Origin: an uncultured Gemmatimonadales bacterium
Lineage (GTDB): Bacteria > Gemmatimonadota > Gemmatimonadetes > Gemmatimonadales > Gemmatimonadaceae
DNA: 64,000 nt
Assembly: GCA_963707505.1 (NCBI GenBank)
Contig: CAVPQB010000004.1
Span: 672,001 to 736,000, forward strand
Direction of reading: 5' to 3'
Position 1 is the stretch's first letter. The number at the start of each line of letters is the position of its first letter. A program made the translations under genes and the position numbers. Below are positions 16,806 through 57,135 of the stretch, piece after piece. A model generated the notes under the pieces. It had not been told where the DNA came from, searched no databases, and was given only the letters and a program-made list of their open reading frames with translations.

Positions 16806-17990
16806 CTATCTCTTTCCGACGCTGTATTTCGCCAGTATCTCACGCACGCGATCCAGTGGTATCGCCTCGACCGTTCTGCCTTCGCTCGTCACCGATGTCG
16901 CCATGAACATCGAGTTGTAAACTGCTTCTTCCGTCGATTCTATCACCGCCTCGAACAGTGGCGACATGTCGTCGTTCGATACGTCTTCGGTGCTTCTTGG
17001 CACGGGCTTCCGATCCTGCGGCCTTCCACTCGACTGGACTATGCGGCGACGCACTCCTTCCGCAGTGGAGAAGGCGATCACGTAGTCTCCTGATCCGTTC
17101 GACGCGCTCGAGCCCGTGCGCGCAATGCCCATCATCGCGCGCGCAGCGAGCCGCTCCAGGTTGCGATCCGAAAGTGGTGCATCGGTTGCGACGACGATCA
17201 TCACCGATCCGTCGCCACGCTCCTGCTCGACGTAGTCCTTATACGCGTATTTCCCGAGCTCTCGGCCAACCGGCGCGCCCATCACCTGAAGCACGCCGCC
17301 GAAGTTGGTCTGAACGAGCACGCCGACGGTCCAGCCGCCGAGCGTGGTAGGCAACACGCGTGACGACGTGCCGATGCCACCCTTCCACTGGAATACGATC
17401 GTTCCTGCACCCGCACCGACGCTCCCTTCGGCAACCGGTCCGCTATTCGCGGACGCCAGCGCGTGGTGAACGTCTTCCGGAGAGATCGGGCGCGAGCGGA
17501 TCGCGTTCAACGTTCCATCGTTCGTCTCGCCGACGACAGGATTGATCGATCTCACGTTCTCCATGCCGGGCATGCTCAGCAGTTCCGCCGTGAGCGCATC
17601 TGCCGCGCGCCACACACAGAGCGTGCATGTCAGCAGGATCGGCGTCTCCAGCTCGCCCAACTCCCTGAGCTGCGTCGCGCCGACCAGCTTGCCGAATGCG
17701 TTCCCGACGAATACGGCTGCCGGAACTCGATCGAAAAACATGTTGCCGCCATGCGGAAGAATCGCGGTCACGCCGGTGTGCACCGAATCGCCAGCGATCA
17801 CTGTCGACTGTCCAACAAGGACACCTCTGACGTCGGTAATCGCGTTCTGCTTTCCCGGCGTGAAGATGCCCGGCGCGACGCCGAGCGCTCGTGCGCGCAC
17901 GCGGGGTTGCTGTGCGTCGAGGATGCCGGTAACTGTCAGGGCTGCCACGCAGATGGCGAGCACTCTGCTGTTTGAACTGATTGGGTGCAT
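16806..17990 (-). CDS. DmpA-like P1/S58 aminopeptidase with signal peptide
   Basis: NAITDVRGV.VG, PVVGETNDG.LN, EGSVGAGAG, KGGIGTSSR, GDGSVMIVVATDAPL, NGSGDY.IAFST. Confidence 0.9.
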   Translation of the reverse strand: MHPISSNSRVLAICVAALTVTGILDAQQPRVRARALGVAPGIFTPGKQNAITDVRGVLVGQSTVIAGDSVHTGVTAILPHGGNMFFDRVPAAVFVGNAFGKLVGATQLRELGELETPILLTCTLCVWRAADALTAELLSMPGMENVRSINPVVGETNDGTLNAIRSRPISPEDVHHALASANSGPVAEGSVGAGAGTIVFQWKGGIGTSSRVLPTTLGGWTVGVLVQTNFGGVLQVMGAPVGRELGKYAYKDYVEQERGDGSVMIVVATDAPLSDRNLERLAARAMMGIARTGSSASNGSGDYVIAFSTAEGVRRRIVQSSGRPQDRKPVPRSTEDVSNDDMSPLFEAVIESTEEAVYNSMFMATSVTSEGRTVEAIPLDRVREILAKYSVGKR

Positions 17991-18055
17991 GCGTGTGGGA
18001 GGTTGGAGTGACCAATCATACTACGGACGGAGCGAGACCGACATCGGACAGGTGT

Positions 18056-18236
18056 GTTGGGCATACCCAACGCGGTTGCGCCCGCGCGGATCGGGGCTCA
18101 GATTTCATTGCGTAACCCAGGTTGCACCCCGTCCGCGGAAAGGGATTATCCCACCTGAGCGCTTGTCGCACCACTGAGCGTCGACCTCACTTCTGCCCGT
18201 TGCTGGCGGACCTCGGGCGTTGCAGAAGGAGGAGTG
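18056..18236 (+). promoter_or_regulatory. Structured 5' leader / candidate cis-regulatory RNA upstream of the ankyrin gene
   Basis: Several pairings, including cttctgc 18190-18196 with gcagaag 18222-18228, which overlaps the SD aggagg 18227-18232, and gtccgc 18131-18136 with gcggac 18206-18211. Confidence 0.5.
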
Positions 18237-19673
18237 ATGTCTCGTGCGCTGCCATCCCGTCCCAATCTGGAGCACCTCAAAAAACAGGCGAAAGCTCTGC
18301 TTCGCCACTATCTCGCGGGAGATACGGACGCACTTCGATCGTTCGGTGCGCGCAAGCCTGGCGCACCCTCACCCAAGCTCGCCGACGCGCAGCACGCACT
18401 TGCGCGGGAGTACGGTTTCCCGAGCTGGGCCCGGCTCAAGCACAACGTGGAATCGCTGACCGGTACCGACGCGGCCCGCGCACTCGAGGCCGCAGTCCGG
18501 CTTAACGACGCGCAGCGTGTTCGCGATGTCATCGCGCGTTTCCCGGGCATCGCGAGCGAGCTCGACAGTGCCATGCCGAATGGCGACTTCGGCGCGACGC
18601 CATTGCTCGCCGCCGTGCATCTCTGCAACCGCGAAATGATCGACGTGCTGCTCGCAGCGGGCGCCAACGTTAATCAGCGCAGCCACTGGTGGGCCGGCAG
18701 CTTCGGAGTATTGGGCAGCGATGCGGATCTCAACGCCTTCCTCATCGCTCGTGGCGCAGTTGTGGACGCACACGATGCTGCGCAGGCGGGAATGCTGGAA
18801 CGGTTGAAGGAGCTCGTGGCAATGGATCCGGAAGTCGTGCGCGCACGGTTCGGCGATGGGCAGACGCCGCTGCACGTTGCATCTTCAGTCGAGATCGCGG
18901 AGCTGTTGCTCGATACCGGCGCGGATATCGACGCGCTGGACGTGGATCACGAATCCACGCCCGCTCAGTATCTCGTTCGTGATCATCAGGACGTGGTGCG
19001 TTATCTCATCTCGCGCGGCTGCAGGACCGACATCCTCATGGCGTGCGCGATCGGTGACGTAGAGCTTGTCCGCCGCCACCTGACGGACGATCCGCACTCG
19101 GTCTGGACGACCGTTTCGCCAAAATATTTCCCGATGAAGGACTCACGCGCTGGTGGTTCGATCTACATCTGGACGCTGGGAAACTTGCTGAGCGCACACT
19201 CCGTCGCTCGTCAATTCGGACATGAGGACGTTCTGGCGCTGTTGATGGACCATACGCCTGATTCACTCGCGCTCGCCCTGGCATACGAAGCTGGCGACGA
19301 GGCCGCGGTAGATGGCATCAAGGCTCGCAATCCGAATATGGACCACCAGCTCACCGACGAGCTTCTCGCAAAACTTCCGGCAGCGGCGCGGTCGAACAAC
19401 TCTGTCGGCATTCACCTCATGCTTCTCGCTGGATGGCCAGCTTCTGCCCTGAACGACCGGGGTGAGACTGCGCTGCACTGGGCTGCATTTCATGGCAACG
19501 GGGACTCCGTCGCCGAACTCATCCGCCACGGTGCAGATGTAACGCTCAAGGACGTCGCCTTCGAGGGCACGCCACTCGGCTGGGGCCAATACGGCGCCGA
19601 CAATAGCTGGCTTCGCGACGGCGGCGATTATCCATCAGTCATTCGCGCGCTAGAAGCCGCTGGCGCAAGGTGA
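18237..19673 (+). CDS. Ankyrin-repeat protein with N-terminal LPSRPNLEHLKKQAK...AREYGFPSW module
   Basis: Ankyrin motifs GATPLLAAV, GQTPLHVA, GETALHWAAFHG..VAELIRHGADV; strong SD aggagg. Confidence 0.88.
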   Translation: MSRALPSRPNLEHLKKQAKALLRHYLAGDTDALRSFGARKPGAPSPKLADAQHALAREYGFPSWARLKHNVESLTGTDAARALEAAVRLNDAQRVRDVIARFPGIASELDSAMPNGDFGATPLLAAVHLCNREMIDVLLAAGANVNQRSHWWAGSFGVLGSDADLNAFLIARGAVVDAHDAAQAGMLERLKELVAMDPEVVRARFGDGQTPLHVASSVEIAELLLDTGADIDALDVDHESTPAQYLVRDHQDVVRYLISRGCRTDILMACAIGDVELVRRHLTDDPHSVWTTVSPKYFPMKDSRAGGSIYIWTLGNLLSAHSVARQFGHEDVLALLMDHTPDSLALALAYEAGDEAAVDGIKARNPNMDHQLTDELLAKLPAAARSNNSVGIHLMLLAGWPASALNDRGETALHWAAFHGNGDSVAELIRHGADVTLKDVAFEGTPLGWGQYGADNSWLRDGGDYPSVIRALEAAGAR

Positions 19674-19674
19674 C

Positions 19675-19718
19675 AAAAAACCATACCGGGAGCGCGACGG
19701 TGCGCTGCCGGTATGGTT
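19675..19718. terminator. Intrinsic terminator between convergent ankyrin and porin genes
   Basis: Stem aaccataccgg 19679-19689 / ccggtatggtt 19708-19718; the A6 run at 19675-19680 gives a U tract on the minus strand. Confidence 0.75.
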
Positions 19719-19774: not shown

Positions 19775-20941
19775 CTAGAAATTCGCAACCCAGTGCATGT
19801 AGTAAGTCTTTGTAGGTGCGACGGGGGCGCCATTCGCTGGCGTTGCTTCCTGGTAGTCGAGTGATATCGACGTTCTGGACGTCAGATCCCAGCTGAGTCC
19901 ACCGATGAACGTGTTGATTTTCGGACTGGTGGACGTGTTGGGGGTCAGCTGATCGTATCTCAGCACGACACCGAGCGGAATCGTCGATTTTGAGTCGACC
20001 ATCTTGAACGGCCTGGCGACGACGTAGCCTGCAACCAGGCGTCCGGTGCTATCCGCTATTCCGGCGGGAGAGGCAGCCGTGTTCGCACCCGTGTCCATTC
20101 CGTCCTGACGTTGCGCGTAGTCGATACCAACTACGAGACGCGGATCACGGATTCCGACGAAACCGCCGTACCGGTTGCGTTCCAGGCCGGTACCTATCGG
20201 ACCAAGCTGTCCACTCCCTCCATTCACGAACTTGCTGGCGAGATCGCCGCGATACACCCATCCGTCGATCGCGAGTGTGCGGAGATACGACAGATCGCTG
20301 TTGCCGAGAGGTGTGATGGTGAGTCGCCCCTGATAATCCTTGAACCTGTCAGTCTCGCGCGATGCGTATCCGGATCCGTTCGTCACGGCGACATATGCTT
20401 CGCCCAATTTGTTCGGCAGCGTAACGATGCCGGCGATTCCCGCGTCTGCTGAGGAGAAAAAGCCAGCGCGCTCGACCGGAGTCTGTGACAACCAGCGCGG
20501 CCAGAAGTTTTCCTCGTGGTCGATGAACATCGTGTGTATGAGACCGATCCGGCTGGTGAATCCCCAGTCACCGCTCTTCTTTGCCTTGAGAAAATCATAC
20601 TGCAGGTACGCGTACTTCGCGCGCAGCACCCAGCCCTTGTAGTACGAATCGCTTCCGGATGCCGTCTGCTGATACAGATCCCCAGTTACGCGGATGCTCG
20701 CTCGATCGCCGGCCGGCATCTTGAAGGTGAGATAAGCGCGCTCGACGTCGAACTTGTTCTGGTCCTTGTTTGCGCCGGCAGCAGCCTGATACTGGTAATT
20801 CCCGAATACGACGCCGGAGAAGTCGATCGGAATTGTTACCTTCGTAACGGTTTTGGTGGTATCGGTCCGAGTCGTGTCCTGAGCCATCAGCGTCGGCGGA
20901 AGCAACACGGCGACTGCGAGAAGTGAGGCGGATATTCGCAT
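19775..20941 (-). CDS. Outer-membrane beta-barrel protein, putative phosphate porin
   Basis: Signal peptide, alternating aromatic beta strands, FDVERAYL, AKYAYLQY, C-terminal Phe (WVANF); 2 nt downstream of pstS. Confidence 0.72.
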   Translation of the reverse strand: MRISASLLAVAVLLPPTLMAQDTTRTDTTKTVTKVTIPIDFSGVVFGNYQYQAAAGANKDQNKFDVERAYLTFKMPAGDRASIRVTGDLYQQTASGSDSYYKGWVLRAKYAYLQYDFLKAKKSGDWGFTSRIGLIHTMFIDHEENFWPRWLSQTPVERAGFFSSADAGIAGIVTLPNKLGEAYVAVTNGSGYASRETDRFKDYQGRLTITPLGNSDLSYLRTLAIDGWVYRGDLASKFVNGGSGQLGPIGTGLERNRYGGFVGIRDPRLVVGIDYAQRQDGMDTGANTAASPAGIADSTGRLVAGYVVARPFKMVDSKSTIPLGVVLRYDQLTPNTSTSPKINTFIGGLSWDLTSRTSISLDYQEATPANGAPVAPTKTYYMHWVANF

Positions 20942-20943
20942 TG

Positions 20944-21984
20944 TTACTTGCTCGCTCCGAGCGCGGTGAGACGTGCGTCAAGCCGACTAACCATTGTTGC
21001 CGGAAGTGGTGCGTAGTCGAGCGATCCTGCAACCGACTCACCATTCTTATATACCCAACGCAGGAAGTTGGCGAGCGCCTTTCCCTTCACAGCATCCTTG
21101 GGATGCTCGTAAACGAGTATCCAGGTGAACGATGAGATCGGATACGCAGCCTTGCCTGGCGCGTTCACGATCGAGATGCGGTAATCGGTATTCGCGGGAA
21201 TCTTTGCCGCCGCTCCAGCCGCCGCTGCGGTAACCGATTCCAGCGTCGGTGCGACCCACTCGCCAGCCGCATTCTTGATCAGCGCAACCGGAAGCTTGTT
21301 CTGCTTCGCGTACGACAGCTCGACGTAGCCGACCGCGCCTGGAAGCTGTTTCACCTGGCCCGTAACACCTTCGCTGCCCTTGCCACCGAGTCCCACTGGC
21401 CAGTTGAGGCTCTGTCCTCTACCTACCTTGCCCGCCCATGACGTGCTGATGGTTGCGAGGTAATCGCTGAAGATGAACGTCGTGCCGCTGCCATCAGCGC
21501 GGTGTACCACTATCACGTCGGTCGATGGGAGCTTCACGCCCGGGTTGAGCGCCGCGACGCGCGAGTCGTTCCACTTCGTGATGCCGCCCATGAAGATGTC
21601 GGCGAGAACGGGACCGGTGAGCTTGAGCGGCTGCGTCACGCCCGGAAGGTTGTACGTTACGGCGACACCACCCAGAACCGTCGGGAAGTGCAGGATCGCG
21701 CCACCCTTCGCTTTGGCGAGCTGCTCGTCCGTCATAGGCCCGTCGGTCGCGCCAAAATCGACGATTCCGTCGGATAGCTGACGAATTCCACCGCTCGATC
21801 CGATCGATTGGTAGTTGATCTTCACTCCGGTTTTCTGCGCGTACATCGCGGCCCATTTGGAGTAGATCGGATACGCGAAACTCGATCCGGCGCCAGTGAG
21901 GTTGGTTGCTTGCGCGCACGCTATCGAGATGAATGCGCCTGACATCACTGCAGTCAGTGCCGCAATACGAACAGGTCGAATCAC
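20944..21984 (-). CDS. pstS: Phosphate ABC transporter substrate-binding protein
   Basis: LTGAGSSFAYP, NYQSIGSSGG, DFGATD, RADGSGTT, VGYVE, YPISSFTW; GTG start with GGAG SD. Confidence 0.96.
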   Translation of the reverse strand: MIRPVRIAALTAVMSGAFISIACAQATNLTGAGSSFAYPIYSKWAAMYAQKTGVKINYQSIGSSGGIRQLSDGIVDFGATDGPMTDEQLAKAKGGAILHFPTVLGGVAVTYNLPGVTQPLKLTGPVLADIFMGGITKWNDSRVAALNPGVKLPSTDVIVVHRADGSGTTFIFSDYLATISTSWAGKVGRGQSLNWPVGLGGKGSEGVTGQVKQLPGAVGYVELSYAKQNKLPVALIKNAAGEWVAPTLESVTAAAAGAAAKIPANTDYRISIVNAPGKAAYPISSFTWILVYEHPKDAVKGKALANFLRWVYKNGESVAGSLDYAPLPATMVSRLDARLTALGASK

Positions 21985-22057
21985 AGGGTACTCCGTGAGA
22001 GGGTTTGAACCAGCACCCAATGATCGCTAACACACATCACGGAATTCACCGCGATTC

Positions 22058-22079
22058 GGTAACGGCTATGTCACGGCTG
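22058..22079. promoter_or_regulatory. Putative Pho box upstream of pstS
   Basis: GGTAACGGCTA / TGTCACGGCTG direct repeat, 11-bp period. Confidence 0.6.
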
Positions 22080-22084
22080 ATCCA

Positions 22085-23809
22085 TCACGTCTCGCGCGGC
22101 GCCGACACGGCGGCCGGAAACGAGGCGCTCACGGTCGTGCCGCGTCCGAGCACACTCTCGGCCCGCACCGTTCCTCCGTGCGCCTCCACCAGATGCTTCA
22201 CGATCGCGAGCCCGAGCCCGGTCCCGCCCTTGTCGCGCGAGCGCGCGGAGTCGGCGCGATAAAAACGCTCGAAGATGCGCGGCAGATGCGCGGGCGCAAT
22301 CCCGACCCCGGAGTCTCTCACACCAACCACGGTGTATCCGGCCGCGTCGCGGTGAGCGAATACCGTGACCGTTCCGTGTGAAGTGTGGCGGACGGCATTC
22401 TCGACGAGATTCGAGATTACCTGACGCAACGCGGTGCGATCCGCGTACACCCAGCGTGCATCGTTGGATACCTGCGCTTCCGTTATGACGTCGTTGGCCG
22501 TAGCAACTTCGGCACTGGACGCGATCGCTTCGGCTGCGACAGCAGCGACGTCCACATTCACCGGCCGCGGAACCCAACCGCCCGACTCGATGCGCGATAG
22601 GTCCAGCAGCTCGTCCACGATGCGTTGCATGCGGGCAGTGTTGGATTGTATCAATGCTGCGAATCTGATGCGATCGCCCTCCTCGACGCCGGGCTCGCGG
22701 AGTGTCTCGGCGAATCCACCGATCACGGTGAGCGGAGTGCGCAGCTCGTGCGACACATTTGCGACGAAATCCCGCCGCATCGCTTCCAGTCTGCGTGTTC
22801 TGGTGAGGTCGGTGAGCGCGAGTACCGCGCCACCATGCGGCAACGGCCGTGCCGCTACGGCCAGCATCCGTCCCGAGATCTCCATGGGGTCGCCGTCAGA
22901 CGGTACGCCGCTCAGTGCACTCTCGAGTACGGTGTGCAGCTCGCGCTCACGTGGTATGTGATCGGCGGAGAACGGTACCTGCTCATGGATGCCCAGCATG
23001 CCGCGTGCGGCAGTATTGATGCGCAGCACGGAACGGCGAGCGCTGATTGCGAGTACGCCTTCACCGAGCGACTCCACAACGGCCGACACCAGCGCCTCGT
23101 CATCCTGCAACGCCTTGAGGCGCGCGCCGAGCTGCTCGGACAGACTGTACAGTGCGCGCGCCAGATCGCCGACCTCGCCGGGCGCCGACATCGATGGCCG
23201 GCGCGACAGGTCGCCGTCCGCGATCGCGCGCGCAACGTCGCGCAATTCGACTACCGGACGCGACACGGTGCGGGCGAAAACAATTGCGAGTAACAGCGCG
23301 ATGGCCGCGGCGGCCACACCGGCGAAGGCGACGTCGCCCAGTGCAGTATTGAATATCGTGTCGAACGACGCAGTGCTCTGCGATACGCGAGCAGCGCCCA
23401 ATTGGGCGGGTACCGCGACGTACACCTCGTCGTCGCCTTCCGATGGACTGAGCCGGCGCGACGTGCCAACCCGGCCGGCGAACGCGGCGATCACCTCCGG
23501 TCGTCCCGAGTGATTCTGCAAGCCGGCGACGCCCGCCGAGTCGAACTGCGAGTCTCCGAGCACGACTCCGTCGCGACGGATCAGCGTTACCCTGTGCCCC
23601 AGTGTTCTTCCCGCAGCGTGCGCCAGTTGCGGCGCGCTGACAGCTGGCGTCCATTGCGAGGCTACGAACTGAGCCTCGCGCGCGAGCTCGTCAGTGCGCT
23701 CGGTAGTGAGACGCCCGTGCAGCTGCCGATCCAGAATGAACGCGACCGTCAACGTCAGCGCGATGATTATTGCGAGTGACGAAAGCAGCAATCGATTGGC
23801 GAGCCTCAC
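22085..23809 (-). CDS. phoR: Phosphate-regulon sensor histidine kinase
   Basis: NHSGRPEV periplasmic motif, HAMP, PAS, DFVANVSHELRTPLT, NLVENA, RIFERFYR, GGTGLGLAIVKH. Confidence 0.9.
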   Translation of the reverse strand: MRLANRLLLSSLAIIIALTLTVAFILDRQLHGRLTTERTDELAREAQFVASQWTPAVSAPQLAHAAGRTLGHRVTLIRRDGVVLGDSQFDSAGVAGLQNHSGRPEVIAAFAGRVGTSRRLSPSEGDDEVYVAVPAQLGAARVSQSTASFDTIFNTALGDVAFAGVAAAAIALLLAIVFARTVSRPVVELRDVARAIADGDLSRRPSMSAPGEVGDLARALYSLSEQLGARLKALQDDEALVSAVVESLGEGVLAISARRSVLRINTAARGMLGIHEQVPFSADHIPRERELHTVLESALSGVPSDGDPMEISGRMLAVAARPLPHGGAVLALTDLTRTRRLEAMRRDFVANVSHELRTPLTVIGGFAETLREPGVEEGDRIRFAALIQSNTARMQRIVDELLDLSRIESGGWVPRPVNVDVAAVAAEAIASSAEVATANDVITEAQVSNDARWVYADRTALRQVISNLVENAVRHTSHGTVTVFAHRDAAGYTVVGVRDSGVGIAPAHLPRIFERFYRADSARSRDKGGTGLGLAIVKHLVEAHGGTVRAESVLGRGTTVSASFPAAVSAPRET

Positions 23810-24537
23810 ATACTCCTCGGCGGCGCCGCGTTGATTCGATAGCCAAACCCGCGCACCGTTTCGATCATGTCACCGGATGCGCCGAGCTTGGTCCGAAGTC
23901 GCTGCACGTGCATGTCCACGGTGCGTGTCTGGATGTCGGGCGCAGCCTCCCACACTGTCTCCAGCAGCAACGTGCGCGCAAGCACGCGGCCACGGCGCTC
24001 CGCCAGTGTCAGCAGCAGCTTGTATTCGGTGGGAGTGAGATCGATCAAATCGCCATCGACTCGCACTTCGTGAGCAGCGCGATCGATCCGCACTGCCCCC
24101 ACCTTTATCACGTCGCTCTGTACCGTGGCCGGTGCGCGAACCCGCCTGAGGATCGCGCCCACGCGAAGCGTCAGCTCCTGCGGCGAGAATGGCTTGGTCA
24201 GATAGTCGTCGGCGCCGAGGACCAGACCGCGCACGCGATCGGGCTCCTCTCGTCGTGCGGTGAGCATCAGAACCGCGATGTTCGCAGTAGCCGGCTCGGC
24301 GCGCAGTTTCTCGATGACGTCGAATCCCGACATTCCGGGCAGCATGAGATCGAGCACAATGAGCGCCGGCGACTCGGCGTTGGCTTTTGCCAGGGCCTCC
24401 GGCCCCGTGCTGGCCGTCGACACACCATAGCCCGCGCGAGCGAGATGGTAAGCGACAAGAGCGACTATATCCGGCTCGTCGTCGACGACCAGTATTCGCT
24501 CCGTGACTGCGCCGTTGTCGTCGTTTCCAGATATCAT
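23806..24537 (-). CDS. phoB: OmpR/PhoB-family response regulator
   Basis: ILVVDDE, LDLMLPG, GADDYLTKPFS, TRTVDMHVQRLRTKL, IETVRGFGY; coupled to phoR; start approximate. Confidence 0.9.
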   Translation of the reverse strand: MISGNDDNGAVTERILVVDDEPDIVALVAYHLARAGYGVSTASTGPEALAKANAESPALIVLDLMLPGMSGFDVIEKLRAEPATANIAVLMLTARREEPDRVRGLVLGADDYLTKPFSPQELTLRVGAILRRVRAPATVQSDVIKVGAVRIDRAAHEVRVDGDLIDLTPTEYKLLLTLAERRGRVLARTLLLETVWEAAPDIQTRTVDMHVQRLRTKLGASGDMIETVRGFGYRINAAPPRSM

Positions 24538-24586
24538 GATCGTCACCAAAGTTCGCTGCCCGGAGCCATCGACGGGAGCGCGGATC

Positions 24587-57061: not shown

Positions 57062-57135
57062 GGGCGGGTAGCTCAGTTGGTTAGAGCAGGAGCCTTTTAA
57101 GCTTCAGGTCGTGGGTTCGATTCCCACCCCGCTCA
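57062..57135 (+). tRNA. tRNA-Lys (anticodon TTT); CCA not encoded
   Basis: Acceptor GGGCGGG/CCCGCTC, D arm gctc..gagc, anticodon stem ggagc/gcttc with loop cttttaa, T arm gtggg-ttcgatt-cccac. Confidence 0.95.

Follow-up and report, generated by a model that had tools for sequence, protein, structure and literature searches.

The gene for an ankyrin-repeat protein in a 64-kb window (the whole stretch of DNA analysed here) is preceded by a structured 5' leader RNA of about 125 nt that extends from just behind a predicted sigma-70-like promoter to the start codon and folds around the Shine-Dalgarno (SD) sequence. Judging from genome comparisons and catalogue searches, this leader belongs to an uncatalogued and widespread family with a partner domain, the N-terminal helical module of the protein encoded downstream, and would exert autogenous control of a known principle. 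We lean towards the view that leader and module make up a portable unit of autoregulation: by binding the leader, the module would repress its own translation. The features of the region are the following:

16806-17990, minus strand: peptidase S58 (DmpA-like), divergent neighbour (Pfam)
18056..18071, plus strand: 5' hairpin of the sequence-only reading; present, upstream of the predicted -35
18076..18104, plus strand: predicted sigma-70-like promoter (-35 at 18076-81, 17-nt spacer, -10 at 18099-104)
18110..18236, plus strand: structured 5' leader RNA, type I (ankyrin-type) of an uncatalogued family (model R1)
18112..18125, plus strand: P1 hairpin, 18112-15 pairing with 18122-25
18118..18157, plus strand: pseudoknot 1, P1 loop 18118-21 pairing with 18154-57 downstream of P3
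18128..18138, plus strand: P2, 2-3 bp, closing a 7-nt loop that contains the kissing hexamer
18131..18211, plus strand: pseudoknot 2, long-range loop-loop helix of P2 loop 18131-36 with P4 loop 18206-11
18142..18152, plus strand: P3 mini-hairpin, with covariation in the alignment
18158..18184, plus strand: variable, weakly structured linker containing a second, non-conserved repeat copy
18185..18232, plus strand: P4 terminal hairpin, upper stem 18195-98 with 18215-18
within 18185..18232, plus strand: P4 lower stem, anti-SD 18185-93 with SD region 18225-32
18237..19673, plus strand: ankyrin-repeat protein gene, 478 aa (ORF list; Pfam ankyrin families)
18237..18458, plus strand: N-terminal helical module, about 74 aa, predicted to bind RNA; remote relative of the PF20066 N-terminal domain

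Structure and extent of the leader RNA

The structure was derived from a MAFFT alignment of 65 protein-selected leaders, from which near-duplicates, three long-insert leaders, pattern-derived loci and the unpublished genome G022 were left out. A six-helix model pairs 90.8% of the cells of this alignment, compared with 35-49% for slid controls, and 18 of its 26 pairs show double changes on both sides; homologues thus do have conserved, covarying structure upstream, as the sequence-only reading required. The mini-hairpin P3, which that reading had recognised in the window, is conserved and covarying in the 65 leaders (99.2% paired, double changes in 4/4 pairs). Its proposed pairing of caggt with acctg proved conserved and covarying as well, with the coordinates corrected to 18118-21 and 18154-57: this is pseudoknot 1, with 96.9% of cells paired and double changes in 3 of 4 pairs across the 65 leaders. 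The 3 pairs of P2 reach 87.7% pairing, with its two inner pairs retained in 65/65 leaders, and the upper stem of P4 is 90.4% paired. For P1, shifts of register make the alignment count too low; with anchored counting, all four pairs are found in 159/165 leaders versus 49/155 control windows, with many compensatory variants. Since our sets of leaders contain kin, this contrast and the others with controls given below are not to be read as formal probabilities.

The complementarity of gtccgc and gcggac had been put forward as either a pseudoknot or an alternative fold. As a pseudoknot it is borne out by covariation: the six core pairs of pseudoknot 2 are retained in 65/65 leaders, four of them with a double change, and RNAalifold, unaided, selects this long-range helix together with P3. 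A seventh pair of the helix, which the window lacks, is Watson-Crick in 75/165 leaders versus 38 expected. An alternative fold found no support: the one alternative pairing tried, an anti-anti-SD switch via the internal purine tract, scored -6.5 versus -6.6 +/- 0.12 kcal/mol for permuted partners and displayed no covariation. Folding of the window copy alone was rejected as support for a structured RNA because it is not significant against shuffles (z = -1.23 for 18040-18240, with 25/200 shuffles equally good; z from -0.6 to +0.7 for five longer windows).

The terminal stem covaries and sequesters the SD as the sequence-only reading had supposed, and gcccg/cgggc and cttc/gaag, which it had taken for alternatives, are stacked parts of the one hairpin P4. 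The cognate anti-SD:SD duplex is worth -11.1 kcal/mol compared with -8.3 +/- 0.15 kcal/mol for permuted combinations, so each anti-SD tracks its own SD, and the conserved structure in the 5' UTR overlaps the ribosome-binding site, as looked for in an autogenous operator. Opening the SD costs 12.6 kcal/mol in the window leader and a median of 10.3 kcal/mol in 160 leaders versus 4.7 kcal/mol in 60 control genes of the window's own genome. The kissing hexamer keeps a nearly constant distance from the P4 arms (on the 3' side, 2-3 nt in 148/160), and the linker measures 16-27 nt (5th-95th percentile) with a median MFE of -1.0 kcal/mol. The leader also contains invariant G, C and A positions, most of which are paired.

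At the 5' end, a TAnnnT (-10-like) element begins 30-33 nt upstream of the kissing hexamer in 135/163 leaders, and a TTG followed after 16-18 nt by such a -10 is found in 86/163 leaders, the window among them, versus 0/155 control windows; a strict consensus promoter scan did not find the promoter at 18076-18104. From this promoter the RNA start is predicted near 18110, or about 18110-18112, and model R1 matches 18107-18242 with 113 bits, the window belonging to its training set. All motifs listed in the sequence-only reading are present in the DNA at the positions it gave, and its claim of a structured leader is real, but the 5' third of its RNA likely lies outside the transcript, homologues setting the limits at about 18110-18236. 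The 18056 hairpin, an arm of which recurs in 3/167 other leaders, sits upstream of the predicted -35 and is thus likely to be outside both element and transcript; the direct repeat recurs in 0/167 other leaders and so does the gctcag/ctgagc pairing, whose gctcag overlaps the predicted -10. P1, P2 and the promoter are features which that reading did not contain. The covered part of the Sinorhizobium meliloti 1021 start-site table (Schlueter 2013, PMC3616915) holds no start between 3,100,777 and 3,104,341, the interval in which the S. meliloti homologue was placed by its neighbours' coordinates; the RNA start predicted for this homologue lies about 138-145 nt upstream of the ATG.

The N-terminal module and its coupling to the leader

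Residues 1-78 of the window protein have no Pfam family match at E<=1, and Pfam, profile and structure prediction agree in setting this module apart from the ankyrin repeats, as had been claimed from the sequence. AlphaFold2 predicts four helices (pLDDT 86), and the net charge is +1 to +7 in 35/35 type I modules, in keeping with the basic character first noted. A profile search with the module retrieved 10,721 protein clusters (50% identity) at E<=0.001; among the best 150 of these, the first module copy begins no more than 19 residues from the N-terminus, often in tandem, and many proteins carry two or three modules in a row. Sequence and fold searches with Foldseek, VIA-align and ESM Atlas gave no usable solved relative (best E 2.2 with Foldseek against the PDB; best Z 4.0 with VIA-align, rmsd 4.5 over 66 aligned residues), and none of the known RNA-binding folds was significantly matched by the module in these searches. 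Missing structural relatives are no proof of a new fold.

In the window's own genome, DNA and model searches found the module once and the leader once; short DNA look-alikes of the leader sit inside coding regions and were dismissed as chance rather than paralogous leaders. A gene neighbour upstream of the leader is shared by at most 4/118 loci, and none is conserved. An inverted repeat at 19675-19718, just past the stop codon and with an A run on its left side, is likely the intrinsic terminator of a convergent porin-like gene (19775-20941, minus strand), although a terminator scan did not call it; beyond this gene, reading by eye recognised a PstS-like protein, a sensor kinase and a response regulator at 20944-24549 (minus strand).

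Starting from the protein, we searched 151 genomes of the window's class with the 75-aa module and obtained 26 loci from 21 of them. A recognisable leader is present at 24 of the 25 loci that remain when G022 is left out; locus L007 retains the 3' half of the leader only. Model R1 matches 80/80 metagenome loci that had been chosen by the module, one of them cut by a contig end, 42 of the 80 being training rows of R1. In the class of a Streptomyces genome (actinomycetes), the leader was found at 14 of 15 new loci, none of which was used in training. Modules without a leader also occur, as at L331 and in G152, where six of eight module matches, being divergent or internal copies, have none. At L007 (1260-1495), a terminator-like hairpin stands in place of the leader's 5' half, with P4 and gene intact, which amounts to a natural deletion mutant. 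G152 is a gammaproteobacterial bin in which several ankyrin genes with divergent modules (L154-L159) have no leader and two others have one; a loss of control after duplication is possible there.

Starting from the RNA, we searched with a DNA pattern of the 5' half of the leader alone and followed up 120 loci among the stored genome stretches matching one strict leader pattern, which we estimate at about 1,800. The module lies downstream in 114/120, the other 6 being 4 contig ends and 2 broken remnants, and the partner hexamer, which is outside the search pattern, is found downstream in 115/120 versus 10/77 control windows. Among the 80 pattern matches listed, whose phyla were assigned by hand from record names, 51 are from Acidobacteriota, 15 from Actinomycetota and 8 from Gemmatimonadota, with one each from Planctomycetota, Chloroflexota, Pseudomonadota and Rhodothermales and 2 unclassified; in all, leader and module occur together across seven phylum-level groups. 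A model search of the window's class gave 31 strong matches (one in G022), separated from weak ones by a gap of six orders of magnitude, and inspection by eye placed all 6 new strong matches upstream of module-type sequence, which is truncated or frameshifted in 2 cases. Weak model matches, at 16 type II and 7 type I loci, lie away from any module and were put down to chance. Two close homologues of the ankyrin part do not carry the module, and neither of them (0/2) has a leader. At L041, L046, L280, L298 and L304, intact or partly intact leaders stand before module genes that are truncated, frameshifted or missing. An enrichment in phages was considered and rejected, 2 of 15 loose-pattern viral matches resembling the motif and 1 having a module.

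Leader similarity follows that of the module (rho 0.30) more than that of the C-terminus (0.17), and in the 1,945 of 3,486 pairs with essentially unrelated C-termini, leader cores score 0.63 versus 0.40 for upstream DNA. Across the genomes compared, the RNA thus appears near-exclusively tied to the module, whatever C-terminal domain follows. So strict an association would also follow from simple linkage, and kin are not independent.

The PF20066 branch and C-terminal partners

The module has a remote relative in the N-terminal helical part of PF20066 (Glyoxalase_8), to which it aligns with an hhalign probability of 97.3% (E 2e-11, 54 columns); the genes of this family carry a sister leader. 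The window's module differs in having an extra helix and lies below the family's detection, the window protein having no match to PF20066 at E<=1 (gathering cut-off 23.7 bits), while some type I relatives score 21-25 bits. Among 27 PF20066 loci, 25 are proteobacterial with the module and all of these have a related leader, recognised by script in 24 cases and by model at L251. L261, a PF20066 gene without the module, has no leader, and L252 has a type I-like leader with an altered kissing pair. The 151 genomes of the Streptomyces phylum yielded 1 PF20066 match.

This second type of leader (type II) shares a common core with type I, the difference being that P3 lies inside the P2 loop rather than after P2. 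In an alignment of 23 type II leaders, 89.9% of cells are paired, with the long-range helix at 100% and 3 of its 6 pairs compensated. Type II leaders are present in S. meliloti and on two Pseudomonas plasmids, the latter with a largely exchanged kissing pair and weak model scores, and 16/16 strong matches of the type II model precede PF20066 genes, nearly all of them being training rows. As the type I model scores the S. meliloti leader weakly (E 0.014), it is the common architecture and the linked domains that argue for homology between the two RNAs. Type II modules are weakly basic, with net charges of -1 to +4. At L253, about 110 extra nt separate the type II leader from the start codon. 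The record of L314 (CP090106.1) is labelled pSymB, probably wrongly: it spans 3.7 Mb, and the coordinates to which its genes map are those of the S. meliloti 1021 chromosome.

Pfam scans of 58 of 99 eligible downstream proteins found ankyrin repeats in 51, with LRR, Clp_N and TPR also present. A second set, made up of 40 representatives chosen for having no obvious ankyrin motif and 12 locus proteins, added zf-C4_ClpX, LON substrate-binding, Glyoxalase_7 (VOC), APH and FliM to LRR and Clp_N. Together with the RNA-first result of 114/120, these scans uphold the earlier proposal of a portable leader-plus-domain unit with varied C-terminal domains. At L150, L266, L248, L263, L009, P0144 and P0175, the module is joined to isolated ClpX zinc-finger, Clp N-terminal or Lon substrate-binding domains. 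Pfam reports no ATPase or peptidase domain in these fusions, which are possibly protease adaptors or decoys. The ClpX zinc finger occurs with the type I module and RNA at L150 and with the type II module and RNA at L266: the type of RNA goes with the type of module, not with the C-terminus.

Proposed control of translation, related systems and significance

For an RNA that is tied to one small basic domain, indifferent to C-terminus and neighbours, and built round the SD, an operator role is the most fitting interpretation. The leader, folded into its double pseudoknot, would be bound by the module encoded on the same mRNA, and binding would keep the SD locked in P4, so that translation of the module's own gene would be shut off. 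When the C-terminal domain engages its target, or when the protein is degraded, the leader may be released and more protein made; this step is more speculative, as is its corollary that target-driven release would match the supply of each protein to demand. The recurrence of isolated protease substrate-recognition domains among the fusions suggests that release may be driven by target binding or turnover. Four elements of this scheme we infer from the comparative data: that transcription starts from the predicted promoter, that both pseudoknots coexist with P4, that the module binds the leader directly, and that the outcome is repression.

The direction could be the reverse. An SD buried by about 10 kcal/mol without any protein leaves a repressor little to add, which makes activation possible: P4 would be off by default and opened by the module, or by the long-range helix when stabilised by the module, giving a feed-forward or bistable switch. 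A nested-only consensus fold, which favours the long-range helix over P4, points the same way, but the distances between hexamer and P4 are as tightly held as expected if both form together, and a covarying anti-anti-SD partner is lacking, so that we regard positive control as unlikely. We would give slightly less weight again to a sensor independent of protein, either a riboswitch for a small molecule or ion or a thermosensor, that controls this gene family. Two pseudoknots, invariant G, C and A positions and an SD-sequestering stem are riboswitch-like indeed; however, the module is the sole feature common to the downstream genes, which share no metabolic or transport theme, the invariant positions are mostly base-paired, the type II leaders show that the hexamer can be exchanged completely with compensation, and no Rfam riboswitch matches.

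About as improbable as a sensor, its two variants taken jointly, is a leader that serves as a structural partner, be it as a stable processed RNA that joins the module in a ribonucleoprotein, acting for example as antitoxin, scaffold or cis tether, or as a natural copy of a fold that the module recognises on other RNAs. A fold more elaborate and conserved than SD masking requires, the two or three tandem modules of many proteins and the near one-to-one coupling would all suit such a role, whereas the covariation of the anti-SD with each gene's own SD, the constant end of the RNA at the start codon, its presence as a single copy per gene without tandem arrays, and the lack of conserved neighbours and of extra copies in the window's genome count against it. 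That the mRNA begins with a self-cleaving ribozyme seems to us very improbable. HDV-like, twister and pistol ribozymes are small double-pseudoknot RNAs too, but their known helix order is unlike that of the leader, whose second pseudoknot depends on the SD hairpin; no Rfam ribozyme matches, and the coupling to one protein domain would be left unexplained. Our preferred reading remains repression of translation by the module.

Leaders of ribosomal genes such as rpsO/S15 and the alpha operon/S4 are likewise structured 5' UTRs beside the SD and tied to the gene of the presumed binder. In E. coli, the rpsO/S15 leader is a pseudoknot and the alpha-operon/S4 leader a nested pseudoknot. They differ in that the protein there is ribosomal, whereas here a non-ribosomal small domain sits on many unrelated domains with the RNA travelling along; the leader here has no Rfam match, and its presumed operator role is read from co-occurrence. 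Another likeness is to Rop/Rom of ColE1, a small all-helical protein that recognises the RNAI-RNAII loop-loop helix. In that system the RNA pairing is intermolecular and controls replication, and Rop gave no sequence or fold match to the module in our structure searches. The Chlorobi-RRM motif has reportedly been proposed to be bound by the product of the downstream gene. The msiK RNA motif is a cis motif similarly presumed to bind its downstream gene's product (Weinberg 2010, PMC2864571). Both are simple hairpins, each confined to one lineage and one gene family, unlike the window leader, and both, being in or submitted to Rfam-era sets, gave no match to it in Rfam scans. The feedback principle of autogenous ribosomal leaders is stated in the literature (PMC2864571), S15 leaders are covered (PMC8470358, PMC4137082), and the logic of gene association is applied to ribosomal leaders and protein-binding candidates (PMC2864571, PMC11109978).

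The leader fits no described Rfam family; the sequence-only reading, too, had been unable to assign it to a riboswitch class. A tRNA gene at 57062-57135 is the sole Rfam match in the window at gathering thresholds, followed by one irrelevant match at E 1.2, and neither the 20 type I loci nor the 12 type II loci scanned gave any match to Rfam 15 at E<=1. Solibacter-1 and Rhodopirellula-1 (Weinberg 2010; not in Rfam) have overlapping taxa, but in the supplement alignments covered they share no sequence with the leader, nor does any other motif there match it. A literature search found no description of the leader, although a listing is possible in the uncovered supplementary motif lists of PMC11109978, PMC5737381 and most of PMC8632094, and a search by the name and accession of PF20066 found no function or RNA described. 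What is new here is the large ankyrin-type branch and its tie to the PF20066 branch.

More tentatively, we suggest that these genes may encode an undescribed, multi-phylum class of one-component regulators with RNA output, in which a new RNA-binding domain and its leader cassette were fused thousands of times to protein-recognition domains, including isolated substrate-binding parts of ClpX, ClpA/B/C and Lon, so that synthesis would be set by the amount of target, and in which domain and RNA would have co-diverged into at least two subtypes differing by a moved hairpin. An unannotated domain and the N-terminus of a misnamed "glyoxalase superfamily" would thereby acquire a function, and a likely new RNA-binding fold would be added. 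If true, an RNA of about 125 nt and a domain of about 70 aa would make up a portable feedback part, and homologues in Sinorhizobium meliloti, Streptomyces and Pseudomonas plasmids make the cassette directly testable.
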